NCBI GenBank assembly: GCA_965220385.1
Contig: OZ244825.1
Span: 2,441,142 to 2,505,141 of the forward strand
Direction: 5' to 3'
DNA length: 64,000 bases
Source: Candidatus Poribacteria bacterium
GTDB lineage: Bacteria; Poribacteria; WGA-4E; PCPOR2b
The notes under the pieces were generated by a model. The model had not been told where the DNA came from. It was given only the letters and a program-made list of their open reading frames with translations, and did no database searches. Positions within the stretch are counted from its first letter, which is position 1. Each line of letters begins with the position of its first letter. The translations under genes were made by a program, and so were the position numbers. This document shows positions 20,421 to 46,950 of the stretch, in pieces.

Positions 20421-20580
20421 TGTCCCGCCTGCCTGCTCCCGGCTTGTCGGAGTCCCGCCTGTCCCGCCTGTCCCGATTTATCGGGGATTTATCGGGGATT
20501 CATCGGGCCTGCCCCGCCTGTCCCGATTTATCGGGGATCCTATCGGGCCTGTCCCGATTTATCGGGGGGATTTATCGGGG
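20421..20580. repeat. composite intergenic palindromic repeat element (family A; core GTCCCGATTTATCGGGGA units)
   Basis: Multiple units of CCCGCCTGTCCCGATTTATCGGGGAT sit in a divergent intergenic region. The same modules recur at 36731..36818 and, reverse-complemented, at 46796..46950. Confidence 0.8.
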
Positions 20581-20607
20581 CATCACGTTTCGCGCTTATT
20601 TTGTCTG

Positions 20608-20636
20608 TTGACAGGTGCTGGATTCTTGTGTATGAT
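20608..20636 (+). promoter_or_regulatory. sigma70-type promoter, TTGACA-17 nt-TATGAT, upstream of the Ldh_2-PhyH-PhyH-VOC cluster
   Basis: Exact TTGACA at 20608-20613, a 17-nt spacer, and TATGAT at 20631-20636. The start codon lies about 60 nt downstream with a GAGGAGAAGGAG RBS. Confidence 0.6.
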
Positions 20637-20696
20637 AGTTATCACGACTGACGTAGTTCGATCTCGCTACACGTTAGAGGAGAAGGAGTCAAAGCT

Positions 20697-21773
20697 ATGG
20701 CAGAAATGCACTGTTTCAACGCAAGCTATCTGCATGCAGTGACGCGACAACTGTTTCTGGCAGCGGATACGCCGCGTCATATCGCTGAGGATGTCGCTGA
20801 AATCTTGATTAACGCCAACCTCGCTGGGCACGATTCGCACGGCGTGCTCCGCATCCCCGGCTATCTAAGCAGTATCTCAAGTGGGGGGACTCAACCTGCC
20901 GCTGAACCAGGGGTGTCCAACGAAACCACCAATACCTTCCGTATTGACGGGAGGGACGGTTTTGGACACTACACTGCTCGACAGGCAATGGAACGGGCGA
21001 TTGAGAAGGCAAAGGCTGCGGATACCTGTGCTGTGAGTTTTATCAATACCGGGCATATCGGTCGACTCGGTGAATATGCGGAGCAGGCGACACGTGCGGG
21101 GTGTATCGGCATCATCACCTATGGCGGCGGTGCACGGGACAGAGGGGGTACTGTGCCTTTCGGGGGCGCGCGCGGTGCTCTCGGCACCAATCCGATTGCG
21201 GTCGGTGTGCCAACCGGGGACGACTGTCCATTCATCATTGATTTTGCTACCAGTATGATTGCCGCGGGTAAAGTTTCGGTCGCTGCAAGCATGGGTGTTG
21301 ATCTGCCTGAAGGTTGTATTGTGGACAAGCACGGCAACCCTAGCGTTAAGACAGCGGACTTCAGTGATGGCGGATCTCTGTTAGCGTTTGGTGGGCATAA
21401 GGGTTACGCATTCTCCCTCCTTGTATCCTTGTTCGCCGGTCTGTCTGGTAACTTTGATATTGAGGCCGCTTCCATGGGCAGTAACACGTTGATGCAGGTT
21501 ATCAACATCAGTGCCTTTACGCCATTAGAACCTTACCAACAGGGGGTTCGCGCGTTTCTCGACGGAATTAAGGCTATACCATCTGCACCCGGTTTTGACG
21601 AAGTGCTGGTTCCGGGTGACTTTGAATATCGTTCCCGCTCCCAACGACTTGCTGACGGGGTCAATGTTCCCGATACTATCTATCGTCAACTTCAGGAATG
21701 CGCGGAAAAATTGAACTTCTCCCTGAGCGAAGATCTTGTCGAACCCGCCGATGCGGAACGATACCAAACGTGA
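20697..21773 (+). CDS. Ldh_2-family (malate/L-lactate dehydrogenase family 2) NAD(P)H-dependent oxidoreductase
   Basis: The 358-aa ORF carries the GHDSHG motif typical of the Ldh_2 family, which includes ureidoglycolate, sulfolactate and Pip2C/Pyr2C reductases. Confidence 0.8.
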   Translation: MAEMHCFNASYLHAVTRQLFLAADTPRHIAEDVAEILINANLAGHDSHGVLRIPGYLSSISSGGTQPAAEPGVSNETTNTFRIDGRDGFGHYTARQAMERAIEKAKAADTCAVSFINTGHIGRLGEYAEQATRAGCIGIITYGGGARDRGGTVPFGGARGALGTNPIAVGVPTGDDCPFIIDFATSMIAAGKVSVAASMGVDLPEGCIVDKHGNPSVKTADFSDGGSLLAFGGHKGYAFSLLVSLFAGLSGNFDIEAASMGSNTLMQVINISAFTPLEPYQQGVRAFLDGIKAIPSAPGFDEVLVPGDFEYRSRSQRLADGVNVPDTIYRQLQECAEKLNFSLSEDLVEPADAERYQT

Positions 21774-21789
21774 AACGGAGGAAAATACT

Positions 21790-22650
21790 ATGGATGCCGA
21801 ATGTTTACAGCACGTTCTGACAGAGGAAGAGCGCGCCAATTTTGAGCGGGACGGATTCATTGTGGTCAAGGATGCCCTGCCGGCTTCAATGGTTGAAGGG
21901 CTTGTTGAGGTAGTAGACCGTCTTGGTGCCTGCGAAGACTTTCTGGGGAAGGATGATCTACTGCTGGAACTCATCGATTGGCACCGGACATTTCCCAAAG
22001 TTTGGGGAATTCTCGGCTGGAACATCCACTCCTACTACACGCAGATGCTCGTTACGCCTCCAGAGGATGAGGAGCACCAACGTACAAAGCACAGACGAGG
22101 CTGGCATCAGGACAGCGACCGCATAAACGCCGATATCGAGCCGGGACCCCAGCCACGTATCTCAATCAAAGTGGGATACTTCTTGACAGATCTCACACAG
22201 GGTGGATACGGCAACTTTAGCGTGCTCCCTGGGAGCCAGCTCAAAAGAGAGATTGAATTACCTGCCGATGGGGTTTCGGATCCAGAGGAAGCGATAGAGA
22301 TTAAAGGACCGGCGGGGACTGCGGTCATTTTCGATCGGCGACTCTTTCACGCACGCGGCTGGAACCTGTCCGAGGTGACACGAAAGGTCCTGTTCGTAGG
22401 CTACAGCCATCGATGGATCCATCCGAGAGATGAGCGAACGGTAGCGCATGTTATGGAGCGTTCTAATCCAATCCGCAGACAGCTGCTCGGTGCGAAAACA
22501 CGGGCAATGGGCACCTCATCGCCTTCGGACAAGGACGTCCCGCTTCGTTCCTGGATTAAGGAACATTTGGGCGAAGAGGTAGTTACCGATAACTACGCTC
22601 GCATTGTTGGTGCACCTTCGGTAACTTTTGGACGAAACCACACCCAGTGA
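21790..22650 (+). CDS. PhyH-family Fe(II)/2OG dioxygenase (first member of a tandem pair)
   Basis: The start MDAECLQH follows a GGAGG RBS. It is about 65-70% identical to the next ORF and contains HxD (WHQDSD) and a distal His. Confidence 0.75.
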   Translation: MDAECLQHVLTEEERANFERDGFIVVKDALPASMVEGLVEVVDRLGACEDFLGKDDLLLELIDWHRTFPKVWGILGWNIHSYYTQMLVTPPEDEEHQRTKHRRGWHQDSDRINADIEPGPQPRISIKVGYFLTDLTQGGYGNFSVLPGSQLKREIELPADGVSDPEEAIEIKGPAGTAVIFDRRLFHARGWNLSEVTRKVLFVGYSHRWIHPRDERTVAHVMERSNPIRRQLLGAKTRAMGTSSPSDKDVPLRSWIKEHLGEEVVTDNYARIVGAPSVTFGRNHTQ

Positions 22651-22772
22651 TTTGTCATAACCACGCAAGTTGACAAGTTTGCCGTAGAAGCTTTACCTCG
22701 ATTAGGGACGGATATGTGAAAGATTGAGTTCCATTCGACAAAAACCAATCGGATGGAGTGAGGAGGTTGATC

Positions 22773-23597
22773 ATGGATAGCGCATGTTTGGAACACTGTT
22801 TAACAGAGCAAGAGCGTACCCAGTTTGAACGAGATGGATTCATTGTAATCGAGAACGCACTTCCAGCGCAAATGGTTGAAGGGCTTATCAATGCTGTGGA
22901 CAGCGTGAAAGCCGGCGTGGATTTCATAGGCAAAGATGATCGATTCCTAGAACTGGTCGATTGGCACCGAACCTTTCCCAAAGTCTGGGGCATACTCGGC
23001 TGGAACATCCATCTGTACCACACACATATCACAGTGACGCCGCCAGTACCATTGGAAGATAGGCCCTCAAAGAAGCGCCTTCACTGGCATCAGGACAGTG
23101 GTCGCGTGAATTTAGACATTGAAACGATACCCGCACCACGCATTTCTGTGAAGATAGGCTATTTCCTAACCGATGTTTCTGAAGGAGGACGGGGTAACTT
23201 TAGCGTGATACCCGGTAGCCATCTGGTGGATGAGGTTGAATATCCCGCCGATGGTGTTTCCAATCCACCGGAGGCGCATGAGGTTCGCGTCCCTGCGGGC
23301 ACAGCGGTCATCTTTGACCGTCGGATTTGGCATGCGGGCGGGTGGAATTTCTCGGATATTACACGCAAGGTGCTATTCGTTGGCTACAGTCTCCGATGGT
23401 TCCATCCGAGGGATGCGATGACCGTCTCTCACTACATGGATCGATGCGATGCGATCCAGCGGCAGTTGCTCGGCTCGAAAACTGGTAACTTAGGACTAAC
23501 GTCGCCGAGAGAGGAAGATGTTCCGCTTCGTGAATGGATGCGAGAGCACTTGGGTGAGGAGTCAATCGCTGATCGTTCAGCCAGAAATCTCACGTAA
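22773..23597 (+). CDS. PhyH-family Fe(II)/2OG dioxygenase (second member of the tandem pair)
   Basis: The start MDSACLEH follows a GAGGAGG RBS. It is a paralog of 21790..22650. Confidence 0.75.
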   Translation: MDSACLEHCLTEQERTQFERDGFIVIENALPAQMVEGLINAVDSVKAGVDFIGKDDRFLELVDWHRTFPKVWGILGWNIHLYHTHITVTPPVPLEDRPSKKRLHWHQDSGRVNLDIETIPAPRISVKIGYFLTDVSEGGRGNFSVIPGSHLVDEVEYPADGVSNPPEAHEVRVPAGTAVIFDRRIWHAGGWNFSDITRKVLFVGYSLRWFHPRDAMTVSHYMDRCDAIQRQLLGSKTGNLGLTSPREEDVPLREWMREHLGEESIADRSARNLT

Positions 23598-23678
23598 CCC
23601 TTTCGCGCCGATCTACATAAATGCAGCTGCGCGAACTGGCTGTTTGGATTGACGGCGACTTAGGAAAGGAAGGCCCTT

Positions 23679-24107
23679 ATGGGTAATGCTAAGCTCGTTT
23701 TTGAGCATATCCACATTATCAGTGAAGACCCGCAGGTCGCTGCCGAATGGTATGTAGACATGCTGGGCGGAGAAATCGCTGAGACGTATGAACTCCGTGG
23801 TGCCCCTCAAATTGCCGTTGTTTTTGAGGGGATAACTCTCCTTATCCGCGGGCGGCGACCGGGTGAAAGTCCGGACAAGACAAACAGTATACAATCCTTC
23901 GGGGATTTTGCCAGCCACAATGAGTGGGGTATGGATCACTTTGCCTTCCTTGTACACGGAGACCTCACGGAGTTCTGTAACGAACTGAAGAAGAAAGGTG
24001 CTACTTTCTCTATCGAACCTCACGATTCAATTGGCAGTACTTGGGGCGGTAGTCTTGCCTATCTTAATGCCCCTGACGGGGTGAGTGTAGAGCTGCTCCA
24101 AGCGTAA
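23679..24107 (+). CDS. VOC-family (glyoxalase/bleomycin-resistance/extradiol-dioxygenase fold) protein
   Basis: The 142-aa ORF has the two-module beta-alpha-beta-beta-beta pattern, with His/Glu metal positions in HIHIIS…E and HFAFLV…E. Confidence 0.7.
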   Translation: MGNAKLVFEHIHIISEDPQVAAEWYVDMLGGEIAETYELRGAPQIAVVFEGITLLIRGRRPGESPDKTNSIQSFGDFASHNEWGMDHFAFLVHGDLTEFCNELKKKGATFSIEPHDSIGSTWGGSLAYLNAPDGVSVELLQA

Positions 24108-24289
24108 ATATGACGCGAATTAAACATTATCGTCTGAAAATTGAGTTTTCCAATCCCTGACCCGCTAACAGGTTAATTGAGACTTGACTTCTACGGAGTG
24201 GATGTGTTACAGTTACGCATATTGTTTGTACTCAACCATTGTTTAAGTGTTGACTGCCATCTACAGCAGGATATTAAGGAGATTAAATA

Positions 24290-24418
24290 ATGTACCGTCC
24301 ACAGCTTATCAACAATCGTTTCTCTTCGCGGCTTAGCGGATTTCTCAATCTAGCTTTGTTCCGATTGCGTCTCGATTTGACCTTGCTGCGCGTGGTGGGC
24401 GGTAGTGCACCGGATTAA
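24290..24418 (+). CDS. candidate 42-aa small ORF (Leu/Arg-rich) with strong SD; hypothetical
   Basis: TAAGGAGAttaaataATG, then 42 codons, then TAA. A rho-independent terminator follows about 35 nt downstream. The ORF is below the size cutoff of the ORF track. Confidence 0.2.
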   Translation: MYRPQLINNRFSSRLSGFLNLALFRLRLDLTLLRVVGGSAPD

Positions 24419-24451
24419 TATACAAGCAGACTTACTTGTAATCCCTTGACT

Positions 24452-24497
24452 AACAGCCCATCATCGAGCCGCTTTCGATGGTGGGCTTTTTATTTAT
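24452..24497 (+). terminator. rho-independent terminator
   Basis: Stem CCCATCATCGA/TCGATGGTGGG with a GCCGCTT loop, followed by CTTTTTATTTATTT. Confidence 0.55.
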
Positions 24498-24887
24498 TTG
24501 AGGGGTGCTCATAAGTTGCTTTCGATGTGGCAGGTAGGATCAAGACCTGCCACACACCACCCTCGGTATTGTGGCGCGAAGGTGCCATGCCCAAATCCAG
24601 TGAGGACGCGCCTTGAGCGATGATCCTCCCTGATTTTTAGGAGTGAATTTACGGTTGTAATTTGGCAGGGAAACAGCAGAGCAAAAAAACAATGGCCGCA
24701 GCCGCTTGTGGGGCAGATTAGGAAATCTGCCTCCACGTATGGCAGTGGTTCTGCAGGTCGAGATTCATATCTCGACACTGCGGTGTCGATTTTGGAAAAT
24801 CGACCTACAACTCGGTTGCATTTGGAAGGTTATAGATGACGTCCATTGATTCCCTAGTGCTTTTACAAATTTCTCTAAGAGACAACA

Positions 24888-24916
24888 TTGCATTTTATCA
24901 ATTAGTTCAGTATAAT
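24888..24916 (+). promoter_or_regulatory. sigma70-type promoter, TTGCAT-17 nt-TATAAT, upstream of leuS
   Basis: TTGCAT at 24888-24893 and TATAAT at 24911-24916 lie about 100 nt upstream of the leuS start (RBS GAGGAG). Confidence 0.5.
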
Positions 24917-25013
24917 TTGACAGAACGAATGTGAACCGAACTAGAACACTATACAGATGTACTATCCCGAGAAATACCCGTGCTATAGAAAAGACAACTT
25001 GAGGAGATTTTAG

Positions 25014-27563
25014 ATGCAAAGACACACTTATGACCCTGCCGCTATTGAACCGAAATGGCAAAACATTTGGGAGGAACGTAAGACGTTTCGTACGCCGGAC
25101 GATCCCAGAGCGTGGGAGGGAAAACCGAAGTACTATATCCTCGATATGTTTCCTTACACCTCCGGCGCAGGGCTCCATATTGGACACCCCGAAGGCTACA
25201 CAGCTACAGATGTGCTGGCGCGTATGAAGCGGATGCAGGGCTACAATGTGCTGCACCCAATGGGTTGGGATTCGTTTGGGCTAACCATTGAACGCACCGC
25301 GGAGCGGGAAAACATCCATCCTGCCATCGTCACGGAGCGCAACATCGATAAGTTTCGTCAGCAGATTAAGCAGATCGGTTTCTCGTATGATTGGGACAGA
25401 GAGGTGAGCACTTCCGCGCCCAACTACTATAAATGGACACAATGGATCTTCCTCAAGCTTCATGAGAAAGGATTGGCATACCTCGCCGATGTACCGGTCA
25501 ACTGGTGTCCTGCGTTAGGAACAGTTCTTTCTAACGAGGAGGTCAAGGATGGAAAGTATGTAGAAACCGGTGATCCCGTTGAGCGGCGGTTGATGCGGCA
25601 GTGGATGCTGAAAATTACTGCCTATGCTGACCGACTCTTAGAGGATATTGAAGAGGTGGACTGGCCCGAAGGTATCAAGGAGATGCAACGGAATTGGATC
25701 GGAAAGTCAGAGGGGGTAGACGTAGATTTTGCAATCAAGGACACCGACGCCGAATTTACCGTTTTCACAACGCGACCCGATACGCTATTTGGTGCAACAT
25801 ATTGCGTCTTTGCACCGGAGCATCCATTAGTTGAGCAGATGACAACGGATGCGCAGCGGTCTGCTGTGCAGGCGTATGTTGACGAGGCGAAAAACAAAAC
25901 AGATCTCCAGCGGACGGATCTCGCCAAAGAGAAAACCGGTGTTTTCACGGGTGCCTATGCGATCAACCCCGCAAATGATAAAGCGATCCCAATTTGGGTT
26001 GCCGACTATGTGCTGATGGGTTACGGTACAGGCGCAATCATGGCGGTTCCCGCTGAGGATGATCGTGACTGGGACTTCGCAAAGACATTTGATCTGCCAA
26101 TCGTTCGGACTGTGCAACCGCCAAGCGATTTCGGGGACGAACCGTATCTCGGCGATGGTCCCTCAATTAACAGCGGGTTCCTTAACGGACTGAATATTCA
26201 GGAGTCGAAAGAACGGATGACCCAATGGCTTGAAAGTGAAGGGAGAGGGAGTGCCCAAGTACAGTACCGCTTGCGCGATTGGCTCTTTTCCCGCCAACGC
26301 TATTGGGGAGAACCCTTCCCCACTGTGGAGTTAGAAGATGGGACAATTATGCCCCTACCTGAGGGCGAGCTTCCAGTGGAACTGCCCCCTATTGATGAAT
26401 ATAGACCCACCGCGGATGGTAAGCCGCCCCTCGCTCGCGCCTCGGACGACTGGCTGATGATTACCCTACCAGATGGACGGAAAGGGGTGCGGGAAACAAA
26501 TACAATGCCCCAGTGGGCGGGATCTTGCTGGTATTACCTGCGATACATGGACGCCCATAACACGAGCGAAGCGTGGTCTGCCGAAGCAGAGCGATATTGG
26601 ATGCCGGTGGATCTCTATGTCGGTGGCGCCGAACACGCTGTCCTACACCTGCTCTACGCGCGTTTTTGGCACAAGGTACTGTATGATTGCGGTCTTGTTT
26701 CTACGAAAGAGCCGTTCCAAAAACTGTTCAATCAAGGGATGATCCTCGCCTACTCCTATCAGGACGACAACGGGAAATATTACTCGCCTCACGAGGTAGA
26801 AGAGCGAGATGGAGAGTGGGTTGTCAAGGAGTCCGGGGTGCGGACAAACACGCAGATCGAAAAGATGTCCAAATCTCGTTTCAATGTCGTAACGCCGGAG
26901 GAGGTCATCGAAGAGTATGGAGCGGACGCGCTGCGCCTCTATGAACTCTTTATTGGTCCCCTCAGCGTCAGCGCACCGTGGCAGACGCGCGGTGTGGAAG
27001 GTGTCTATCGATTCCTGCAGCGGGTGTGGCGGCTGGCGATTGACGAGGACACCGGGCAACTGAGCGGTAAGCTGACCGATGCGCCCATTGATAGTGATAA
27101 GGAACTGTGGAAAGTGCTAAATCAGACCATCAAGGATGTCACCGAGGATACGGAATCAATCGACAAGATGAACACCGCTATCAGTCACATGATGGTGTTT
27201 GTCAATGCAGCGACACAGGCGACAACAGTATCGAAAGAAACGATGAAGACATTCCTGCGGCTGCTCTCTCCCTACGCCCCACATATCGCTGAGGAGATTT
27301 GGCAGCGGTTCGGGGAGGCCGAGTTAATTGCGTACGCCCCTTGGCCCACCCACGATCCCGATGTCCTTAAGCGCGAGGAGGTCACCATCGTTGTCCAGGT
27401 CAACGGCAAATTGCGCAGCCGAATCGAACTACCCGTTGATGCAACCAACGAGGAGGTTGAGGCAGCAGCCCTCGCCGACGACCGTATCCAAAAGCATATT
27501 GAAGGGAAGACGGTGAGGAAGTTCATCGTTGTGCCTAACCGACTCGCGAATATTGTGGTTTGA
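25014..27563 (+). CDS. leuS: leucine--tRNA ligase
   Basis: The 849-aa ORF has a HIGH motif (HIGHPEGY), a KMSKS motif (KMSKSRFN), and CP1 editing and anticodon-binding domains. The architecture is typical of bacterial LeuRS. Confidence 0.97.
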
Positions 27564-27670
27564 TTTGAACCAGCGCCGTGAAGATGCAGTGTTGGTTGTG
27601 GAGTACGTTTCGGGCAGTGAAAGCGACGAGAAGAAGCAGGGAAAACCTTTCCATATAGAGGAGGCGTCTC

Positions 27671-31686: not shown

Positions 31687-31752
31687 CGCTGCACGAAAGC
31701 TTAGGAGTAAGCATAAGGCACAAATTGAACACCCCAGACCGGTGGATTCGTA

Positions 31753-31783
31753 GGGAACGCAGATCTGCGTTCCCTGTTTTTAT
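31753..31783. terminator. bidirectional rho-independent terminator (perfect palindrome GGGAACGCAGATCTGCGTTCCC + T-run)
   Basis: A 22-nt perfect palindrome followed by TGTTTTTAT, located 65 nt after the ABC gene stop. Confidence 0.6.
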
Positions 31784-31953
31784 GCCGACGAACCAACATG
31801 TGGCGTTATCCTAACGCAAGTTGCTAGTCGATAAACCAGGCACCAGAAACCGGCGTAATAGTCGGGAATTGGAATTCCCTCCTACAAAAAACATGCGGTA
31901 GGAGCGATCTCCGAATCGCGACTGGTTTGACTATGGTTAACTAGCAACTTAGG

Positions 31954-32853: not shown

Positions 32854-33019
32854 AGTCCTTTCCTCCATCATCAAATAAAACGTGGAGGTGATCCTTGAGA
32901 TTACATCTCTCGGCTTTTATGTTTGTAGTAGCGCAATTTATTGCGCGTCCGGGCGAGCGGCAAATCCTCCAGTTCCCCCCTGACAAGGGGGGCAGGGGGG
33001 TTAGCTTTGAGGTCCTATA

Positions 33020-34192: not shown

Positions 34193-34414
34193 TGTCATTC
34201 CTCCTTATTCAGTAGGGAGTACGGGTGATTCTGAGACGTAATAGTGATGAAAATTATGGCACGGAACCGCAAATTTGTCAAGGGTTTTGGTATAGAGGTG
34301 ACTTTCGTGCTGTCTGAATCCCGGATTCTCACGGATTCAAGGAGGAGGCGGATTTAGAGAGGATTGTCAATGGAGATACCTTGGGATCTCTTCAAAGAAC
34401 ACGACTCTGACCCC

Positions 34415-34438
34415 GTAGGTGGGACATCTTGCCCCGCC
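34415..34438. repeat. REP-like element, family B copy (GTAGGTGGGACATCTTGCCCCGCC)
   Basis: It shares GTAGG-NGGGRCATCTTGCCC with the other copies and sits in a divergent intergenic region. Confidence 0.5.
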
Positions 34439-36548: not shown

Positions 36549-36730
36549 GGCGTTACTTTATACATAACTATCAAACGAAAATCGGAATAAATTGAATAAT
36601 TCCGCTGATATGGCTAACTAACGAATATAGCAAGGTAGTCATTATGTTAGGGCTTACGCAGCTAAACGGTTAAAGCCCTGTAGTTCGGCGATTCATCGCC
36701 GCTGAACACCGTTTCCAACGCCCGTTTCTT

Positions 36731-36818
36731 AATCCCGCCTGCCTGCTCTCGGCTTGTCGGAGTCCCGCCTGTCCCGATTTATCGGGGATTCATCGGGGAT
36801 AAGTCGGGACAGGCGGGC
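36731..36818. repeat. intergenic palindromic repeat element (family A copy)
   Basis: CCCGCCTGTCCCGA…TCGGGACAGGCGGG inverted arms flank TTTATCGGGGATTCATCGGGGATAAG. It shares CCCGCCTGCCTGCTCYCGGCTTGTCGGAGTCCCGCCTGTCCCG with 20421..20580. Confidence 0.8.
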
Positions 36819-36887
36819 AACTACAATCGAAGTGCGTAAGTCCTGTATGTTTGGGTGTTATGTAAAAAAGGAAGGAGGCTATTCCAC

Positions 36888-38485: not shown

Positions 38486-40555
38486 TCACTCGGTCGATTT
38501 TGCCGCAGGGGAGGTGAGCTGCCACAGTAAGGTTGTCCCGTCTTCGCTTCCGCTGGCAAGTGTCCTTCCGTCGGGCGAAAATGCGACGGAGTGAACCCGT
38601 GCGGTATGGCCTTCAAAGGTTTCCTTGTGTTTTCCGGTGTCGACCTCCCATAATCCAATCGTGTGGTCCCAACTACCGCTGGCGAGCGTCTTTCCGTCTG
38701 GCGAGAAGGCTACAGCAAAGATATAGTCCATATGACCATCAATCGTTGCTTTCTCTTTCCCAGTTCCCGCGTCCCATAGCTGAATCGTATCGCGATATCC
38801 TCCACCCGCAAACGTCTTGCCATCTGGAGAGCATGCTAACCGAATAACCCAATCCGTCCCACCGGAAAGGGTTGCCTTGTGAATCCCGGCGTGAGTATCC
38901 CACAACCGGATCGTGTGGTCCTGACTTCTACTTAATAGAGTAACACCATCTGGGCAGAATACGACGAAGGTAACCTGATCGGTGTGCCCCTCAAGCACTG
39001 TGTTCTGTTCCCCGGTGCCAACGTTCCACAGCCGGATTGTATGGTCCCAACTGCCGCTCGCAAGCGTTTTGCCATCAGGGGAAAATGCGACGGAATTGAC
39101 TTCGGCCGTGTGACCTTCGAGTGTTGCCTTCAGTTCCGCGGTCTCTACCTCCCATAGTCGAATCGTATAATCGTCGCTGCCGCTCGCAAGTATTTTGCCA
39201 TCAGGGGAAAACGCCACCGCGGTGCCCCAGTCCATATGCCCCTCAAGAGTTGCCTTCTGTTCTCCGGTGTCCGCCTCCCATAGTCGAATCGTGTAATCAT
39301 CACTGCCGCCGGCAAGTGTTTTCCCGTCCGGAGAGAATACCACAGAGGGAAACCGAGCTATGTATCTGTCCAAGGCTGCTTTCTGCTTTCCGGTAGTAAC
39401 CTCCCACAACCGGATTGTGGAGGTCAAAAGGGTCGCGCTGTGCTTTCCGGTGCTAGCCGCTCCCAACCACATCATGGAATCCTGGCTGCTACTTGCCAAC
39501 GTGTTCCCCTCCGGGGAAAATACCACGGATTGTACATCATGTGTATGTCCTTCAAGAGTTGCCCTAACCTCTCCTGTCTCCACATCCCATAGCCGGATCA
39601 TTCCGTCGTAGCTGTTACTGCTCGCGAGCGTCTTACCGTCTGGCGAAAACGCGACGGGAAAGATGGCATCCCCGTGCCCTGTAAGCGTCATCTTGATGGT
39701 TCCTGTTGCCATGTCCCAGAACCGGATGGTATTGTCCCAGCTGCCACTAGCGAGGGTGTTTTCATCTGCTAAGAATGCCAGGGAGAAGACGGAATCCGTA
39801 TGTCCGGTAAGCGTCATTTTGACCTTTCCAGTCTCCATGTCCCAGCATAGAATTGTGTCATCCTCGCTGCCACTGGCAAGGATCTTTCCATCGGCGGAAA
39901 ACGCAATAGAATAAACGGCACCCTGATGCCCAAAAAGAGTTTGCAGATGCTCCCCTGTAGCGGCATCCCACACCCTTATCATTTCGTCCCAACTTCCGCT
40001 TGCCACTGTCTTCCCGTCTGGCGAAAAGATCACAGAACTGACATCATGCCCATGCCCCTCAAGGGTTGCCCTAAGCCGTCCGTTCTTGATGTCCCATAGC
40101 CGTATTGTCCCGTCGTGCCCACCACTGCTCGCGAGGGTCTTTCCGTCTGGTGAAAACGCCATGGATCTGATATCATGGCCATGTCCACTTATGGTTGCCT
40201 TATGCTGTGTTGTGGCGGCATCCCACAACCGTATTGTTTCGTCAATGCCACCGCTGGCGAGGGTCTTACTGTCCGGGGAAAAGGTCACAGAAAGTACCCA
40301 ACCGGTATGTCCAGTGAGAAGGGCGATTTCCGCACCAGTACCTAAATTGTACAGCCAAACGCCGATGGTACTTGCTACGGCAAGCTGAGTGCCATCGGGT
40401 GAATGTGCTATATCAAGAACCCGCCCCTTACCGAGACGCACTTTCGCATCTTTGGGCAAATTCCATTGATTACAATCTTGAGCGAGGGTGTTTGAGTGAA
40501 GAAGTAGAGTGGAAACAAACAGAATGGCGAGATTGAGAAATCGTCTCGTTGTCAT
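38486..40555 (-). CDS. secreted WD40-repeat beta-propeller protein (~14 WD repeats)
   Basis: An N-terminal signal peptide ends in …NTLAQ. Repeating units of about 42 aa (GHxxxVxSVAFSPDGKTLASGSxDxTIRLWD) run through the 689-aa protein. Confidence 0.85.
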   Translation of the reverse strand: MTTRRFLNLAILFVSTLLLHSNTLAQDCNQWNLPKDAKVRLGKGRVLDIAHSPDGTQLAVASTIGVWLYNLGTGAEIALLTGHTGWVLSVTFSPDSKTLASGGIDETIRLWDAATTQHKATISGHGHDIRSMAFSPDGKTLASSGGHDGTIRLWDIKNGRLRATLEGHGHDVSSVIFSPDGKTVASGSWDEMIRVWDAATGEHLQTLFGHQGAVYSIAFSADGKILASGSEDDTILCWDMETGKVKMTLTGHTDSVFSLAFLADENTLASGSWDNTIRFWDMATGTIKMTLTGHGDAIFPVAFSPDGKTLASSNSYDGMIRLWDVETGEVRATLEGHTHDVQSVVFSPEGNTLASSSQDSMMWLGAASTGKHSATLLTSTIRLWEVTTGKQKAALDRYIARFPSVVFSPDGKTLAGGSDDYTIRLWEADTGEQKATLEGHMDWGTAVAFSPDGKILASGSDDYTIRLWEVETAELKATLEGHTAEVNSVAFSPDGKTLASGSWDHTIRLWNVGTGEQNTVLEGHTDQVTFVVFCPDGVTLLSRSQDHTIRLWDTHAGIHKATLSGGTDWVIRLACSPDGKTFAGGGYRDTIQLWDAGTGKEKATIDGHMDYIFAVAFSPDGKTLASGSWDHTIGLWEVDTGKHKETFEGHTARVHSVAFSPDGRTLASGSEDGTTLLWQLTSPAAKSTE

Positions 40556-40834: not shown

Positions 40835-41482
40835 ATGGCAACCAACAACAAAATCCACGCTTTAGTGATTACCGGTGGACACGGCTTTGAACAGGAACCA
40901 TTTTGGCAAATGTTCAACGGCTTTGAGAATTTCAGCTACGATACCGTTGCTTTTCCAGATGCGTTCAAGTATCTAAACGTTGAGGCAGCAAAAAAATACG
41001 ATGCGCTTGTCTTCTACGATATGTGGCAAGAGATCACCGCTGACCAACAGACCGCCTACCTTGAACTGCTAAATCAAGGCAAGCCGATTGTGTACTTGCA
41101 CCACGCGCTGATTTCGTTCCAAGATTGGGATGAGTTTGATCGAATCGTTGGCGGAGTCTGGGAAGAAGGGCAAGGAACGGTGAAACATAACGTCCAATAC
41201 ACCATCCAGATTGCTGACCCAGATCATCCGGCGACGAAAGGGATGCAAGATTTCGAAATTGAGGATGAAACGTACGGTAATTTCAGCGCCAATCCTGATG
41301 TTCACGCTCTCCTGAAAGCCGACCATCCGGAAAGTGCTCCAGTAATCGGTTGGACCCATCGGTACGCCAACTCCCAGATCGTTTACATCCAGCTCGGACA
41401 CGACGGACTTGCTTACGGCAATCCAAACTATCGCAAACTTGTCGATCAGGGAATTCGCTGGGTGGTTGCTGCTGAAAACTAG
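40835..41482 (+). CDS. ThuA-like (trehalose-utilisation / class-I glutamine-amidotransferase-like fold) protein
   Basis: The 215-aa ORF has ThuA-family blocks (HALVITGGHGFE…VYLHHA). The RBS is a strong GAGGAGG. Confidence 0.65.
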   Translation: MATNNKIHALVITGGHGFEQEPFWQMFNGFENFSYDTVAFPDAFKYLNVEAAKKYDALVFYDMWQEITADQQTAYLELLNQGKPIVYLHHALISFQDWDEFDRIVGGVWEEGQGTVKHNVQYTIQIADPDHPATKGMQDFEIEDETYGNFSANPDVHALLKADHPESAPVIGWTHRYANSQIVYIQLGHDGLAYGNPNYRKLVDQGIRWVVAAEN

Positions 41483-41494
41483 TATTATCACGCC

Positions 41495-42808
41495 TTGGCT
41501 ATGGAATCAACTGCTATGACAATACCGGATGTCGGTGATCTACACGAAATTCACTTGTCCGATCTGGCCTATTCAGCGGACGCTGTCGGTCGTATTGACG
41601 GGATCGTTACATTTGTCCACCGGGGCGCGCCGGGCGAAACAGCAAAAGTCGAAATTACGCAGGTGAAGAAACGGTATCTCCGTGCCCGAATTAACGAAAT
41701 CCTCTCACCGTCGCCGGATCGTTGTCCCCCGCCCTGTTCTTACTTTAGTACCGGGTGTGGCGGCTGCCAATGGCAACACATCAATCTTGATTCGCAGCTC
41801 GACGCGAAAACGCGAGTCTTTATCGAGGCGTTGAATCGAATCGGAGGGCTACCATCTCTGCCTGATGTAACGCGCCATCCTGCCCCTCAACCCCTCGCAT
41901 ATCGGAATCATATCCGCCTAACTGTTACTGCTGTTCGACCTCAAGTCGAATTTGGCTTCAAACAGGAAGAAAGCCATGACGTGGTTCCAATTGACCGGTG
42001 CGAGATTGCGCTTCCTACCATCAACAGTGCCTTGCCACAGGTTGCCAATCTGATAAAAAATCTCAGATGCTTTCGGGTTGATGGGTTGACGCTGCGAACT
42101 TCCGCCACAACCGGCGAAATTATGGTAATCCTGATTTTTCCAAAGAGGTACAAGCCAAGTCTTAAACTTGCTGACAAAGACCTCGCGAATTATCCGGCAA
42201 TCCACTCTGTCTATGTCCAAAGTGGGGAGCGAGGCAAGCCCACATGGGCAGCAGGCAAACAGTATTTGTCCGAGACCACCAGCGGACTGTGCTTTGAAAT
42301 TGGCCCCGAAACTTTCTTTCAGAACAACCTTGCCGGCTTAGAACAGCTCGTCGAGATTGTCCGGCACCATGTACAAGCAAATCCGCCAACCGTGGCTATT
42401 GACGCACACTGCGGTGTCGGCGCGTTTACGTTGCCGGTTGCGCAAAATGCAAAGGCGACCTTCGGACTCGATCTCCAAACGGAGGCAGTTACGCTCGCGA
42501 CCCGTAACGCTAAAACCAATGGCATAACAAACGCAAACTTCCGTGTTGGGCATCTCGCCAAGCTGGGCAGTGTCAAAGCCGATCTTATCGTCCTCGATCC
42601 GCCGCGTAATGGGTGTTGGCGGGAAGATCTTGAAGCCATCGAGCGAATCGCCCCACAACACATCCTATACATCTCTTGCAACCCCACAACACTTGCCCGT
42701 GACCTGTCTAAACTCCGTGCGAGCTATGAGATCGCGTCCTTGGATCTCGTGGATCTGTTTCCGATGACATATCATTTTGAAACGGTGGTTGGGTTGCGGC
42801 GACGGTGA
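41495..42808 (+). CDS. rlmD: 23S rRNA (uracil-5-)-methyltransferase RlmD/RumA family (TRAM + 4Fe-4S + SAM-MTase)
   Basis: There is a TRAM domain, a Cys cluster CPPPCSYFSTGCGGCQW, a SAM-binding motif, and a catalytic Cys near the C-terminus. The start is uncertain: TTG at 41495, first ATG at 41501. Confidence 0.75.
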   Translation: MAMESTAMTIPDVGDLHEIHLSDLAYSADAVGRIDGIVTFVHRGAPGETAKVEITQVKKRYLRARINEILSPSPDRCPPPCSYFSTGCGGCQWQHINLDSQLDAKTRVFIEALNRIGGLPSLPDVTRHPAPQPLAYRNHIRLTVTAVRPQVEFGFKQEESHDVVPIDRCEIALPTINSALPQVANLIKNLRCFRVDGLTLRTSATTGEIMVILIFPKRYKPSLKLADKDLANYPAIHSVYVQSGERGKPTWAAGKQYLSETTSGLCFEIGPETFFQNNLAGLEQLVEIVRHHVQANPPTVAIDAHCGVGAFTLPVAQNAKATFGLDLQTEAVTLATRNAKTNGITNANFRVGHLAKLGSVKADLIVLDPPRNGCWREDLEAIERIAPQHILYISCNPTTLARDLSKLRASYEIASLDLVDLFPMTYHFETVVGLRRR

Positions 42809-42851
42809 ATAAATCATTTCACTGAATCTTCTGTGCTGCTTGGAGACGTTT

Positions 42852-44051
42852 ATGAAGGTTGAATACCGTGCCCCACGCAACGAAGTTGAACTTGACGACA
42901 CAATTGATTGTAGTGTTCGCGCTTTCGGGGACGTTGGGGATAGACGAGACCGCTTTACAAACTTTGTCATACGCGATCCATGGTTCCACCTTAATAATAC
43001 GCGTGCCTGTTTTGTGGAGGGGAAGTGCGTGAGCGTCGTACAGGTTTTTGACCGTCCCATGCGTATCGGGAATTGTGTTGTTCGAATGGGAGCGGTTGGC
43101 AGCGTTGGCACAGATCCGATACATCGCCGCGCTGGGTATTCGGCGGAGGTGGTCCGGGACAGCATCCAGTATATGCGGGCGGCGGGTTATGATCTCTCGA
43201 TGCTGTCTACAGGCATCCAATCACATTACGCCAAAGCAGGTTGGGTAGTGTACCCGACCTACAATACGGAGGTAACCCTTCCCCCAACACTTGGGGAATT
43301 ACCAGGTGATGTGACTATTGAGCAGCATGAACCGAATCGAGATTTGCCGGTGTTAGGGCCAATTTTCGATCAATTTAATGTCAGTCGGACAGGGACGTTT
43401 ATCAAGAATCAGGAATATTGGGTTAACCGACCCACTTGGCGGCCATACGATCCGTCACTATACTGGATTGCTAAACGGGGCGAGGAAACGGTTGCTTATC
43501 TGCTAACGGAACGATGGAAGGTGGGGGAGTTGGGGTATCTACCAGATGCACAGGATGCAATGTGTGCGTTGTTCTGTCACTTCTTTCAGTGCGCACAGGC
43601 GGCGGGGGTTCAGCAGATCGACGCACCGGTGCCATCGGAGAGCCGGAAGATTTTCGAGACTATGGGTTGCGCTGTCCGAAGACGCGAACAGACCAATATT
43701 ATGGCTCGAATCATCAACTTAGAATCGCTATTGACCAAGATCAAGCCGTTGTTAGAATCCAGACTCAGAGCGTCGGACTTTTCGGGGTGGACCGGTACCC
43801 TCCGCATCCGCTACGAGGCCGACGAACGGACGTTGGTTATTTGTAAAGGCGAAATTAGTATCATATCCAATAGCGTGTCACCGCAGATTGACCTTCCCAT
43901 AAGTCAAACGCAGCTGCTGCAACTACTATGTGGAAATATGAGTGCGGAGCAGGTAGTTTATTCTAACGATCTGCAAGGGCTCGAAATCGGCTTGCTTGAT
44001 GCGCTTTTCCCTGTAGGTGAGTTATTTATATGGTGGTTGGATCGATTCTGA
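42852..44051 (+). CDS. Eis-like GNAT N-acetyltransferase (tandem GNAT domains + C-terminal SCP2-like domain)
   Basis: The protein is about 400 aa. The start MKVEYRAPRN follows a GGAG RBS 6 nt upstream. It is a paralog of the next gene. Confidence 0.5.
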   Translation: MKVEYRAPRNEVELDDTIDCSVRAFGDVGDRRDRFTNFVIRDPWFHLNNTRACFVEGKCVSVVQVFDRPMRIGNCVVRMGAVGSVGTDPIHRRAGYSAEVVRDSIQYMRAAGYDLSMLSTGIQSHYAKAGWVVYPTYNTEVTLPPTLGELPGDVTIEQHEPNRDLPVLGPIFDQFNVSRTGTFIKNQEYWVNRPTWRPYDPSLYWIAKRGEETVAYLLTERWKVGELGYLPDAQDAMCALFCHFFQCAQAAGVQQIDAPVPSESRKIFETMGCAVRRREQTNIMARIINLESLLTKIKPLLESRLRASDFSGWTGTLRIRYEADERTLVICKGEISIISNSVSPQIDLPISQTQLLQLLCGNMSAEQVVYSNDLQGLEIGLLDALFPVGELFIWWLDRF

Positions 44052-44198
44052 TTCGTCACCTGGAGTCCTATCCAAGCCAATCAAGGTTGGGGAATAAAAA
44101 AAGAATAAGAACCCGAAGAAAAATACGAGATGTCCCAATGATAGATAGCAGGTTGAGTTAGCTTCGATCTGTAACTCTATCTCTGTGTGGAGAAGTTT

Positions 44199-45398
44199 AT
44201 GAATATTGAATATCGTGCGCCGCGCAACCAAACTGAACTTCAGGATACAATTGAATGTAGCATTCGCGCTTTCGGCAGCTCAGAACATATACAACATCTC
44301 TTTACAAATATTGTCGAGCATGATCCATGGTTTGACCTCAATAACACGCGCGCCTGTTTTGTGGACGGAAAGGCTGCTAGTGTTGTACAAATCTTTGAGC
44401 GCCCCATGCGTATTGGGGATTGCGTCGTCCGGATGGGAGGAGTCGGAAGCGTTGGTACGGATCCACCCTATCGTCGTGGCGGATACTCCTCGGAGGTGCT
44501 GCGGGACAGCGTCGAGTATATGCAAACCGCCGGTTACGATCTCTCCATCTTGGGTACTGGCATCCAGTCGCACTATGCCAGATCAGGTTGGGTGATGTAC
44601 CCAACCTATACCATGACGCTCACCCTGCCCGAAACGCTTGGACAGCTGCCTACTGATGTGGCTATCGAGTCCTATGAACCCAGCCAAGATTTGCCAGCGG
44701 TGCGATCAATCTATGATCAGTTTAACGCGGCGCGAACAGGCACCGTCACAAAGAACGCAGCGTATTGGGCTAACAGACACAAATGGCGACCATACGATCC
44801 GTCGTTGTACTGGATCGCTAAACGCGACGAGAACACCGTTGCCTATCTACAAGCTGCACGGGGAGAGATAGGCGAACTGGGCTGCCTTCCAGACGAGCAA
44901 GAGGCGATGAAGGCGTTGCTCTTGCACCTTTTCCGGCATGCAAAAGCGGAGGGTATCCAGGAAATTGATGCACCAACACCATCGGGGAGCCGAAAGATGT
45001 TTGAGGCGATGGGCTGTTCCATACAGCGGAGAGAAAGTAACGGCAAAATGATTCTGATCACTAACTTTGAGTCGCTATTGACTAAAATTAAACCGTTGTT
45101 AGAATCCAGACTCAGAGCGTCGGACTTTTCGGGGTGGACCGGCACCATCCGCATCCGCTACGAGGCCGACGAACGGACGTTGGCTGTCCGTGATGGAGTG
45201 ATCAGTGTCGTCCCCGAAAGCGCCTCACCCGACATCGACCTTCTCTGTAGTCAGTCGCAGCTACTCAAACTGCTGTTCGGAAATATGAGTGCTGAGCAGG
45301 TTGCTTTCTCCAACCGTCTGAGAATTGCCGAAATCGGTCTGCTTGATGCACTTTTCCCGGCGGACGAATTTTTTATGTGGCATACGGATCGGTTTTGA
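44199..45398 (+). CDS. Eis-like GNAT N-acetyltransferase, tandem paralog
   Basis: The start MNIEYRAPRN follows a GGAG RBS. It is about 60% identical to 42852..44051 across the full length. Confidence 0.5.
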   Translation: MNIEYRAPRNQTELQDTIECSIRAFGSSEHIQHLFTNIVEHDPWFDLNNTRACFVDGKAASVVQIFERPMRIGDCVVRMGGVGSVGTDPPYRRGGYSSEVLRDSVEYMQTAGYDLSILGTGIQSHYARSGWVMYPTYTMTLTLPETLGQLPTDVAIESYEPSQDLPAVRSIYDQFNAARTGTVTKNAAYWANRHKWRPYDPSLYWIAKRDENTVAYLQAARGEIGELGCLPDEQEAMKALLLHLFRHAKAEGIQEIDAPTPSGSRKMFEAMGCSIQRRESNGKMILITNFESLLTKIKPLLESRLRASDFSGWTGTIRIRYEADERTLAVRDGVISVVPESASPDIDLLCSQSQLLKLLFGNMSAEQVAFSNRLRIAEIGLLDALFPADEFFMWHTDRF

Positions 45399-45446
45399 AT
45401 CGTAATCAGAGCGATACGCCAAGGCGCAGGATTAGTCGAGGATAAG

Positions 45447-46784
45447 ATGTCAATCGAAGATATCAGCAATATCAAGGCAGCTTTTGGGAAGGTTTCGATA
45501 ACGCCTCCAATTAACGATGTGTATCCGGATTTCTTCTTCAAACCTTCAGGCGTTCTTGACGACGTCTATGCCCGTATCGCGATCATCCAAGTTGCCGACG
45601 CCCCTGTGCTTGTTCTTGCTGTGGATACATTGGGATTCGGCGTAGCAGAGATCTCCGAACTTGAGGACACCATCGGCAGAGCAACCGGCATCCCATCAAC
45701 CCGAATCTTGATTGCCGGCAGCCACAGTCACTCCGCACCAATCCTGTGTCCGGTTGACCTCTTTGGCGGGTTTAGCCCGTACTTTGATGGGTTGTGTGAT
45801 CGCGTGGGTGAACTGGCAAAAGATCTATTGTCCCGCGCGGAGTCCGTTACGCTTTCGTTCGGGAAATCGAGTTGCGACTTCAATGTGAATCGACGGCGCA
45901 TAACACCCGAAGGGACCGCCGTTTCAGGTCCCAATCCGGACGGAGTCGTCGACAAAAGTGTGCCGATCCTGGGTTGTCATAACGCAGACGGTTCGTTGAT
46001 AGGGATATTCTTCAGCTACTGCTGCCACCCGACAATCCTGTTGGGACCAGAGATCTCTGGAGACTATCCGGGACAAGCTCAACTGGCGCTGGAGACCCGA
46101 CATAATCAGGCTGTTGCACTGTACCTGCCCGGTATGTTCGGAAATGTGCGTCCCAACCTATCGCAGGAGGAAAGGTTCAGAAAGGGCACCCCGCGTGATG
46201 CGATGCACTGCGGAAGCATGTTGGCGGACGCAGTGGACGAGGCATTAAAGGCTTGTAAACCGGTTTCGGTGAATACTATACGCACTCGACGCCTGAAGCG
46301 ACCTCTGCCGCTCGGTGAGCCGCCATCTCGTCAGACACTTGATGAAATTGCCGCCCAAGCAGTCAAATCTGCTCAAGTGACCGAGGAGGAAAAAGCTGGG
46401 CGTTCGGCCTATTACGCTGGTAATCAGTTGGCAATGCGTCAGTGGGTACAACAGATTCGGCTGGAACAGGTAGAGTACCGTGTCCCAACCGAAGTGGGCT
46501 ACACCTTCTCGCGATGGGACATCGGTGATGTTCGCTGGCTTACGTTCTCAGGTGAATTCTTCTTGGAATACGGGTTATATGCCCATTCGCTGTTGGGAGC
46601 AGATCGGACCTTCACGCTCGGTTACACCCAGGGATGCCAAACCTATGTCCCAACCGCACAAGCCTTGATTGAAGGCGGTTATGAGCCAAACGCTTACAAG
46701 CGGTGGGGGCAAAGCGCACCCTTTGCCCCAGAGGTCGAAGACGCGGTAAAGGCAGTCATTCGGGAATTGGCTGATGATGAGTAG
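45447..46784 (+). CDS. neutral/alkaline ceramidase N-terminal-domain-like hydrolase
   Basis: The motif GSHSHSAP resembles the Zn-binding GSHTHSGP block of neutral ceramidases. No signal peptide is seen. Confidence 0.45.
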   Translation: MSIEDISNIKAAFGKVSITPPINDVYPDFFFKPSGVLDDVYARIAIIQVADAPVLVLAVDTLGFGVAEISELEDTIGRATGIPSTRILIAGSHSHSAPILCPVDLFGGFSPYFDGLCDRVGELAKDLLSRAESVTLSFGKSSCDFNVNRRRITPEGTAVSGPNPDGVVDKSVPILGCHNADGSLIGIFFSYCCHPTILLGPEISGDYPGQAQLALETRHNQAVALYLPGMFGNVRPNLSQEERFRKGTPRDAMHCGSMLADAVDEALKACKPVSVNTIRTRRLKRPLPLGEPPSRQTLDEIAAQAVKSAQVTEEEKAGRSAYYAGNQLAMRQWVQQIRLEQVEYRVPTEVGYTFSRWDIGDVRWLTFSGEFFLEYGLYAHSLLGADRTFTLGYTQGCQTYVPTAQALIEGGYEPNAYKRWGQSAPFAPEVEDAVKAVIRELADDE

Positions 46785-46795
46785 ATGCGGGCACC

Positions 46796-46950
46796 ACCCC
46801 GATAAATCCCCCGATAGGATCCCCGATAAATCGGGACAGGCGGGGCTCCGACAAGCCCCCGATGAATCGGGACTAAGAAGCGAGAGCAGGTCCCGACTCG
46901 CCGGGATTCTCCCCGATACATCGGGGCAGGCAGGAACGGAACAGGCGGGA
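46796..46950. repeat. intergenic palindromic repeat element (family A, inverted orientation)
   Basis: CCCGATAAATCGGGACAGGCGGGG…CGGGACTAAG… are reverse complements of the 20421 and 36731 modules. The element lies between convergent genes. Confidence 0.8.

Follow-up and report, generated by a model that had tools for sequence, protein, structure and literature searches.

Very small nested hairpin units in intergenic DNA of a Poribacteria genome

Repetitive extragenic palindromes (REPs) are short imperfect palindromes with a stem of 6-13 bp and a very short loop, often TY, and some REP families sit in small target palindromes (PMC3733652). Systems that join REP doublets (REPINs) to a REP-associated tyrosine transposase (RAYT) are among the closest described relatives of the repeats considered here (PMC3116915). 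REPIN-RAYT systems are described as mostly vertically inherited (10.1101/2022.05.22.493013). Our subject is family A, a set of repeats at three intergenic loci in 64,000 nt of DNA (the window) from a Candidatus Poribacteria bacterium (assembly GCA_965220385.1, contig OZ244825.1, positions 2,441,142 to 2,505,141). With a probability of roughly 0.6, family A arose by repeated insertion of very small hairpin-forming units into each other and into other palindromes, the units being moved by a transposase acting in trans.

Small dispersed repeats (SDRs) offer a second comparison. Elhai et al. 2008 (Genome Res 18:1484) reportedly described SDR4-6 as 21-27-nt dispersed repeats of Nostocaceae, and are said to have judged SDRs mobile from orthologous presence/absence and nested insertion, with SDR5 targeting the palindrome HIP1. 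To our knowledge SDRs encode no protein and have no known mechanism. We know of no description in SDRs of a strict CCCG^AT hairpin target (the caret marks the insertion point), of self-nesting to a depth of 3-4 or of cross-phylum identity. None were found outside Nostocaceae (PMC5861425). Like an SDR, the family-A unit is a 20-odd-nt dispersed repeat with nested insertions, orthologous presence/absence and a short palindromic target. The host is a member of the Poribacteria rather than the Nostocaceae, and the sequences presumably differ as well.

Family A is REP-like or SDR-like. New are its untagged 20-nt unit, the base-precise hairpin target, the self-nesting and the identical copies in several phyla. 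In the literature that we searched, neither REPs of Poribacteria nor the 20-nt unit are described.

Unit anatomy and nesting at the three loci

The basic A unit is the 20-nt sequence CCTGTCCCGATTTATCGGGG, with a 5-nt prefix, a 6-bp stem plus a T.G pair, and a TT loop. A second type, the B unit, has 21 nt (CCTGCTCYCGGCTTGTCGGAG / CCTGCTCCCGGCTTGTCGGAG), and a third has 24 nt and a TTTCTTAAT prefix. A 41-nt long unit is an A-type unit carrying a B unit. The three loci are built from these units as follows; L numbers denote loci in other genomes.

20419-20580, plus strand: locus 1 cluster, 162 nt, nested hairpin units only (four exact A units, one TTC-loop A variant, one 21-nt A variant, one 21-nt B unit and one outer A unit)
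20407-20418, plus strand: left flank of locus 1, CACGTTTTACAG
20581-20594, plus strand: right flank of locus 1, CATCACGTTTCGCG
20428-20457, plus strand: 5' half of a long unit, CCTGCCTGCTCCCGGCTTGTCGGAGTCCCG, core of a 43-nt module; its 3' half lies at 20498-20507
20467-20486, plus strand: exact A unit lying inside another A unit (halves 20458-20466 and 20487-20497)
20517-20536, plus strand: exact A unit inside the 21-nt variant CCTGCCCCG^ATCCTATCGGGG
20548-20567, plus strand: exact A unit that entered after the 3' arm (..ATCGGG^GG..)
36738-36798, plus strand: 61-nt insertion of locus 2, at AATCCCG^ATAAGTCGGG, made of a long unit (36738-36767 and 36788-36798) and a nested exact A unit (36768-36787)
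46821-46945, minus strand: locus 3 cluster, 125 nt, nested, at GCATCCCG^ATCCTATCGGGG
46797-46820 and 46946-46951: host hairpin of locus 3, inside a GGGCAACC...GGTGCCC palindrome
46821-46840, minus strand: exact A unit of locus 3
46856-46880, minus strand: CTTCTTAGT-CCCGATTCATCGGGG unit of the TTTCTTAAT type in locus 3, splitting a B unit into CCTGCTCTCG and GCTTGTCGGAG
46911-46930, minus strand: A-unit variant CCTGCCCCGATGTATCGGGG in locus 3, with 2 mismatches

In these clusters the 9-nt left halves of the unit, CCTGTCCCG, stack at the left and the 11-nt right halves, ATTTATCGGGG, at the right. Deleting the innermost exact 20-mer of locus 1 joins CCTGTCCCG to ATTTATCGGGG and yields another exact 20-mer. 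Eight successive unit removals collapse the cluster completely, to CACGTTTTACAG^CATCACGTTTCGCG. The long unit at 20428-20457 is a TTC-loop A unit with the B unit CCTGCTCYCGGCTTGTCGGAG placed after its CCTG. Loci 2 and 3 parse into nested units like locus 1. The nesting model predicts an un-nested 41-nt long unit, and one is present at L051:1139. The 61-nt composite of a long unit and a 20-mer recurs at loci 1 and 2 and in L009, L020 and L093. The flank pair of locus 1 also surrounds single units in other genomes, and eight units have CATCACG next to them on the 3' side. In the window together with the stretches among the matches listed (see below), the exact 20-mer occurs 76 times, against 17 variants with 1-3 mismatches.

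The original prediction, made from the letters of the window, had recognized that the three intergenic regions share the same sequences. Its coordinates hold, and the similarity is far above chance. It had interpreted the repeats as one composite element of two modules, an interpretation that nesting replaces. Because a unit holds its own target site, units pile up, and the stacked halves give the appearance of modules: three nested units form the 43-nt module with their stacked 5' halves, and stacked 3' halves make up the reiterated ATCGGGGATNN units. The module itself is exact at 20424-20466 and 36734-36776 (0 expected), its Y position being C in one copy and T in the other, but at locus 3 only its 3' 26-39 nt are found, reversed. 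The core GTCCCGATTTATCGGG occurs five times exactly and seven times at up to 3 mismatches, against 0.65 expected, and no further family-A copies were found in the window outside the three loci. The perfect palindrome GTCCCGAT-TT-ATCGGGAC, on which the reiterated units were thought to be built, has no occurrence; the repeated unit ends in ATCGGGG, which gives six perfect pairs and a T.G pair.

The hairpin with 14-nt arms proposed for locus 2 is borne out, since 36764-36777 and 36804-36817 are paired in the predicted fold. Folding of each copy, as had been suggested, gave differing results. As single-stranded DNA, a 198-bp host element including locus 2 is strongly more stable than shuffled sequences (z = -5.06) and locus 3 modestly so (z = -2.2), but locus 1 is no better than its shuffles (z = -0.65).

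Family A is non-coding, as proposed. The open reading frames (ORFs) 20344-20742 and 20346-20651 are spurious, and the stretch that they cover is missing at four orthologous loci. Coding sequence was ruled out as an identity for the clusters on this ground, the ORFs over them being spurious. A CRISPR array was ruled out by the lack of constant-size spacers. A tRNA or Rfam RNA was ruled out as well: the whole window contains no tRNA genes and has 0 matches to Rfam families at the gathering score.

Orthologous sites, target and strand polarity

At all three loci, the family-A insertion is missing from the orthologous sites of related Poribacteria genomes. For locus 1, four relatives (86-91% protein identity) keep the genes and the promoter without the cluster. 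It is missing at L095, where the empty site reads GGTGTTCACGTTTCACGCTTATTTTG, and at L098 and L099; L096 and L097 have a different repeat at the orthologous site. The closest relative at locus 2, L100, has the same host element and flanks 93.7% and 97.4% identical to those of the window. It lacks 36738-36798 as one precise 61-nt difference, its site reading AATCCCGACTTATCGGGACAGG with the junction AATCCCG^AT. For locus 3, the L103 spacer is 56 bp long and repeat-free, and L104 keeps an un-invaded hairpin, AAATCCCGATCTATCGGGGGGTTGCCCC / AAATCCCGATCTATCGGGG, inside the same GGGCAACC...GGTTGCCCC palindrome as locus 3. Beyond the window, L079 and L005 differ by exactly one 20-nt unit, CTCTC[GCCTGTCCCGATTTATCGGG]GATTTATTGG, between flanks that are 92-95% identical. 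Individual hairpins are found both empty and filled, for example GTAGTTGCCCG^ATTCATCGGGCG and GTAGTTGCCCG[unit]ATTCATCGGGCG.

Empty sites in close relatives mean that the insertions are recent. Judged from these sequence comparisons, the units are mobile, selfish and recently active passengers of intergenic Poribacteria DNA, which agrees with the mobility that had been suspected for them. Two larger insertions were seen at other loci, 1.57 kb at L076:2260-3833 (missing in the orthologous L088) and 1.26 kb at L014:3283-4541 (missing in the orthologous L069). Both are probably insertion sequences, and their ends are unlike those of the units or of the host element described below.

The insertion point lies after CCCG, where the 5' arm meets the loop in CCCGAT-NN-ATCGGG hairpins, the units' own included; a looser form of the target is after ..G and before A. 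In the matches listed and the window, allowing one mismatch, the 5' flank ends in CCCG in 42 of 82 units and the 3' flank starts with AT in 46 of 82. Unit and target share one ambiguous G at most, so neither the 20-nt nor the 61-nt insertions have a target duplication. Duplications had been proposed as a feature to look for; none exists for the units beyond that G, but one (TATGT) does for the 198-bp host element.

The units also have a strand polarity. Twenty-nine exact units lie in CCCG^AT..ATCGG hairpins. Read in the unit's direction, the host loop is pyrimidine-only in 25 of them, mixed in 4 and purine-only in 0. Each palindromic host presents the target on both strands, and the polarity is nonetheless 29:0, the unit never being found at the mirror junction AT^CGGG. 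On a target that is palindromic, such asymmetry suggests that one strand is recognized. In metagenome scans for a unit nested in a hairpin host, purine-loop hosts and pyrimidine-loop hosts both gave 0 matches. Units are found in non-homologous contexts too (ACAG^CAT, TCCG^AGAGTCC and CTCG^GAACGG).

Many single units are flanked by CACGTTT(CAC) motifs, at times tandem heptamers, in the arrangement CACGTTTCACAG[unit]CATCACGTTTCAC. Compared with the empty L095 site, this arrangement looks like a 7-10-nt target duplication and falls outside the CCCG^AT rule. The motif, which we take to resemble half of a parS site, was noted at these positions.

10780-10810, 16111-16141, 20407-20418, 20581-20594 and 60157-60180 in the window, and L076:7340-7520: CACGTTT(CAC) motifs

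Locus 2 is hosted by a larger element. On the evidence of its ends, its target duplication and an empty site in L101 that reads GTCATTACGTTTGG, this 198-bp element is a bona fide MITE (miniature inverted-repeat transposable element). L100 has the MITE without the family-A insertion, so family A entered the MITE later. The original prediction had suggested a MITE-like element, which fits the host at locus 2 and not the units. A family-A copy does lie inside a transposon here, yet as a later insertion into it.

36648-36845: MITE hosting locus 2, 198 bp, ends TAGGGCTTACGCA / TGCGTAAGTCCTG, 12-13-bp inverted repeats
36643-36647 and 36846-36850: target duplication of the MITE, TATGT, 5 bp
36680-36702, plus strand: GTAG-tagged REP GTAGTTCGGCGATTCATCGCCGC, inside the MITE
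36720-36824, minus strand: GTAG-headed hairpin (GTAGTTGCCCG ... CGGGC), within the MITE

Within the hairpin at 36720-36824 lie a unit of the TTTCTTAAT type, an A-type unit on the minus strand and the 61-nt insertion. The 6-nt hairpin loop at 36799-36804 is the reverse complement of that at L100:3411-3416 (ATAAGT and ACTTAT), the interior of the palindrome being flipped. Members of the MITE family have ends TAGGRSTTACGYA and 5-6-bp duplications (TATGT, CCTGT, TTCTAG), carry REPs and family-A units as cargo, and in other genomes have lengths of 149-358 bp; besides the element of the window, L072:3300-3530, L093:2550-2775 and L069:1975-2125 belong to it. The whole MITE is present in one locus and absent from the other in the pairs L072/L031 and L093/L061, and less clearly so in a third, L069/L014. 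No autonomous partner of the MITE family was seen.

GTAG-tagged REPs are abundant in the same DNA. Counting only stems of 8 bp or more with loops of 2-3 nt, the range in which the scan is informative, 11 GTAG-tagged palindromes are found in the window against 1.04 in controls; with 7-bp stems the scan gives no excess over controls. The REPs of the window have several stem types, and most match repeats of other Poribacteria genomes.

16062-16086, 24784-24808 (minus strand), 31750-31775, 31863-31885 (minus strand), 32925-32947, 34414-34438, 36680-36702, 43238-43262 (minus strand), 50325-50349 and 62093-62116: GTAG REPs

The GTAG REPs of the Poribacteria sample have a common GAT-TY-ATC core with covarying, fully compensated stems (GCCT/AGGC, GGGC/GCCC, GCCC/GGGC and CGGC/GCCG). 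In the contexts examined, a unit inside a GTAG REP lies in the orientation of the GTAG strand.

Copies in other genomes and likeness to known repeats

To count copies beyond the window, we scanned one genome per species (596 Gb, both strands) for the 20-mer CCTGTCCCGATTTATCGGGG. At least 93 stretches matched, where about 1.1 chance matches are expected under a uniform model. Among the 93 matches listed, 67 are in 15 Poribacteria assemblies and 26 are outside the Poribacteria. The copies elsewhere that the original prediction had anticipated thus amount to at least 67 stretches in at least 15 Poribacteria assemblies. At least four non-Poribacteria assemblies have two or more copies (JBCKZY01, JAFGQG01, DRQG01 and JAJRTW01). 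Carriers of the exact 20-mer include Thermodesulfovibrionia, Bacteroidota, Caldithrix/Calditrichales, Ignavibacterium, WOR-3, Ktedonobacteraceae and two Patescibacteria-like assemblies, in which the 20-mer lies in the 16S-23S spacer. The carrier at L083 is a cultured isolate, Sphingobacterium nematocida DSM 24091 (Bacteroidota).

L011, L015, L029, L043, L046, L054, L056, L059, L060, L063, L074, L077, L082, L083, L085, L091 and L092: non-Poribacteria loci

In many of these cases, exact deletion of the 20-mer restores a hairpin specific to the host, usually of the GTCATTCC...GGAATC type. Examples are gtcattcctg^cggaagcagaaatcc in L029 and ggattcccgatcggagtcggg^aatgac in L011. The match L021, inside coding sequence, is probably due to chance, as probably is the sole match on a viral contig, L094, inside a phage tail gene. 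At L043 two unit copies flank an aspartate kinase gene; the pair was considered as ends of an insertion sequence and ruled out because of the gene that it encloses.

Like a REP, the unit is a short imperfect palindrome, CCCGAT/ATCGGG plus T.G, with a TT or TC loop; stems of 6-9 bp and TY loops of 2-3 nt are common to both. As with REPs and bacterial interspersed mosaic elements (BIMEs), it is GC-rich, has G.T pairs in the stem, and is extragenic, high in copy number and clustered in mosaics. It differs in its tag, since all 76 exact units and the variants have the prefix CCTGT and none has GTAG or CGTC, whereas the co-resident REPs carry GTAG. The unit of insertion or deletion also differs from that of REPs, being a single 20-nt unit here. 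Family-A units are nested in direct orientation and not arranged as the head-to-head or tail-to-tail inverted dimers of REPINs, and the apparent linkers are halves of nested units, whereas in E. coli BIMEs, which bind IHF or gyrase, palindromic units alternate in orientation with conserved linker motifs between them. Unlike REPIN-RAYT systems, family A has exact copies in several phyla. The description of family A as larger and more modular than REPs or BIMEs reflects the nesting; in size, a single unit falls at the lower end of the REP range.

Elements of the IS200/IS605 group, with their single-strand 'peel and paste' transposition, and their palindrome-associated derivatives share with the unit a hairpin, strand specificity, entry 3' of a tetranucleotide (CCCG, as counted above) and the absence of a duplication. 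They differ in needing two distinct subterminal hairpins and TnpA; the unit has one hairpin, and no TnpA was found in the window and the 93 loci searched.

A possible mechanism and its rivals

The reading that we favor runs as follows. A unit enters a hairpin after CCCG, where the 5' arm passes into the loop, without target duplication and with one strand polarity, and successive entries into its own target site build the nested arrays. Movement would occur in trans: a REP-type (RAYT-like, HUH tyrosine) transposase, its gene lying elsewhere in the genome, would act on the units as single-stranded hairpins. The same machinery would serve the abundant GTAG-tagged REPs with their common GAT-TY-ATC core. 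We infer a RAYT-like single-strand hairpin transposase as the mobilizer. The excess of GTAG REPs, with stems covarying around the same core, suggests such an enzyme, as does the GTAG-strand orientation of units inside these REPs. So do the lack of duplication, the short specific target and the strand specificity, which are properties of HUH single-strand transposition by IS200/IS605 elements and RAYTs (PMC3733652).

Several points weigh against this reading. No Y1 or RAYT transposase was found in the window and about 0.7-0.76 Mb of related loci, which is about 1% of the genomes and was searched with approximate queries. The search covered stop-to-stop ORFs of 93 loci and the window, with a regular expression for HUH...Y and with phmmer (IS200 TnpA and E. 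coli RAYT as approximate queries); phmmer gave nothing below E = 0.1. The ORFs between REP pairs are all ordinary genes, with no RAYT among them. REP superfamilies are defined by a GTAG or CGTC tag, which the unit lacks, and the unit's 20 nt form a single hairpin where IS200/IS605 derivatives have two different ends. Locus 2 breaks the polarity rule with its 61-nt insertion, whose host loop is ATAAGT. A few composite arrangements, copied repeatedly, may account for many of the 29 nested cases, although at least six contexts are distinct. Finally, units with CACGTTTCAC on both sides resemble a 7-10-nt duplication, which the simple rule leaves unexplained.

A possible, though clearly less probable, alternative is a distinct class of 'nano-transposon'. 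Here a single strand-specific hairpin would integrate at C-N-N-G^A in folded DNA. Its sequence would have stayed base-identical in eight or more phyla (Poribacteria, Bacteroidota, Calditrichota, Ignavibacteriota, Nitrospirota, Patescibacteria, WOR-3 and Chloroflexota) because a widespread single-strand integrase or transposase specific for hairpins, or else a housekeeping enzyme, recognizes it.

Somewhat more doubtful is copy-choice or gene conversion without a dedicated enzyme. A nascent strand would switch between dispersed hairpins sharing CCCG and ATNNATCGGGG, a nested arrangement would be copied into a simpler hairpin, and arrays would grow and spread through microhomology. About half of the insertions are in hairpins that share both arms with the unit, and the identical 61-nt composite at five loci is what such copying would give. 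The flipped loop between the window and L100 likewise points to recombination or repair inside palindromes. Copying does not account for units in the three contexts without homology given above or in the unrelated hairpins of other phyla, and it could not have created the first CCCG|CCTGT junction. Nor is the strict 29:0 polarity expected from double-strand homology.

It is unlikely that family A is wholly a MITE, that is, a cut-down transposon with inverted-repeat ends that is moved by a DDE transposase and makes target-site duplications. Like MITEs, the units are non-coding, intergenic and polymorphic for presence, and locus 2 does sit in an element that has inverted-repeat ends, duplicates 5 bp and is missing from an orthologous site, with similar filled and empty pairs elsewhere (L072/L031, L093/L061, L069/L014). 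That element exists in L100 without the family-A insertion, and loci 1 and 3 have no such ends. The units themselves, of 20-41 nt, have no terminal inverted repeats beyond their own hairpin, and neither the 20-nt nor the 61-nt insertions are duplicated beyond the ambiguous G. A paired-end transposition complex on double-stranded DNA needs more than 20 bp, so the unit is too short for one.

If anything slightly less likely still is a selected function in cis, with the clusters serving as operator arrays for a dimeric regulator, or as RNA elements that stabilize, terminate or punctuate transcripts. The hairpins are palindromic and operator-like. Locus 1 is directly upstream of a conserved promoter, and loci 2 and 3 are just downstream of genes. 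T.G stem pairs are compatible with RNA folding, a view also held for REPs (PMC3733652). Transcript punctuation, which had been raised as a possibility for these repeats, fares poorly: relatives that have retained the genes and the promoter lack the three clusters, the number of copies varies erratically from site to site, and the flanking genes are functionally unrelated. Orientation relative to genes is mixed, no T-runs follow the hairpins, and Rfam gives no match. Chance similarity or low-complexity sequence, with which the unremarkable fold of locus 1 would agree, is next to impossible given a 43-nt module found exactly twice (0 expected), a 16-mer found seven times (0.65 expected) and dozens of exact copies in other genomes.

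Units lie mainly between genes. In the matches listed and the window, 68 of the 76 exact units are intergenic, though crude ORF calls span 82% of the DNA; the other eight lie in over-extended ORF starts such as that of 20344-20742. Relative to neighboring genes, units are sense in 25 cases, antisense in 14, divergent in 10 and convergent in 4. A search for intrinsic terminators gave only weak consensus matches, none of which falls on a unit. The gene contexts of the three loci are as originally described, and gene order around them is kept in relatives. Homologues of three flanking proteins are labelled Poribacteria by their sources.

Locus 1 neighbors, divergent: GHL10-like gene (minus strand) and Ldh_2 gene (plus strand)
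Locus 2 neighbors, co-directional: RsmI-type methylase gene and VWA/YfbK protein gene
Locus 3 neighbors, convergent: gene for a 445-aa protein of unknown family and M20 peptidase gene
20608-20636, plus strand: sigma-70-like promoter of the Ldh_2 gene (TTGACA, 17 nt, TATGAT; 11 of 12 consensus matches)

The predicted promoter lies 28 nt downstream of the locus 1 cluster, outside the repeat. It is conserved in all five orthologous loci, and the DNA upstream of it is variable.

Other repeats of the window were noted in passing. Two AGCCCCAGCGGGGCGACATGTGTATAGC-like repeats at 60197-60270 recur as a pair in L012, L053, L072 and L096. Another dispersed element, TATGGTGAATTTTAAAAATAAAT...GGTAGGTGCGGTTTGTAACCGCACC...TATAAACTACCATA at 50282-50385, matches about 20 Poribacteria loci and is missing in the orthologues L103 and L104. 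A 689-aa protein encoded at 38486-40555 (minus strand) has 13 WD40 repeats, seen as a 126-nt periodicity in the DNA. A tandem array with a 66-nt period and copies 67-78% identical lies at the end of the window (63291-63950). The 403-aa genes at 42840-44051 and 44187-45398 are tandem duplicates with 74-82% nucleotide identity; L103 and L104 seem to have a single copy.

The way in which REP-like repeats spread has yet to be settled, and units as small as the smallest known to move have rarely been defined to the base. This case defines the boundaries of a 20-nt unit, a CCCG^AT hairpin target and a strand polarity, with empty sites in close relatives that date the insertions. The nested arrays record the order of events, and the case as a whole makes the mechanism testable. 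For annotators there is a warning, as such clusters create spurious ORFs. The units also explain the strong intergenic differences that separate close relatives among these sponge-associated bacteria. Should the integration of a lone hairpin into folded DNA prove true, arrays of the locus 1 type would be a readable record of successive integrations. If confirmed, the exact copies in distant phyla, S. nematocida DSM 24091 included, would point to a broadly distributed mobilizing activity.

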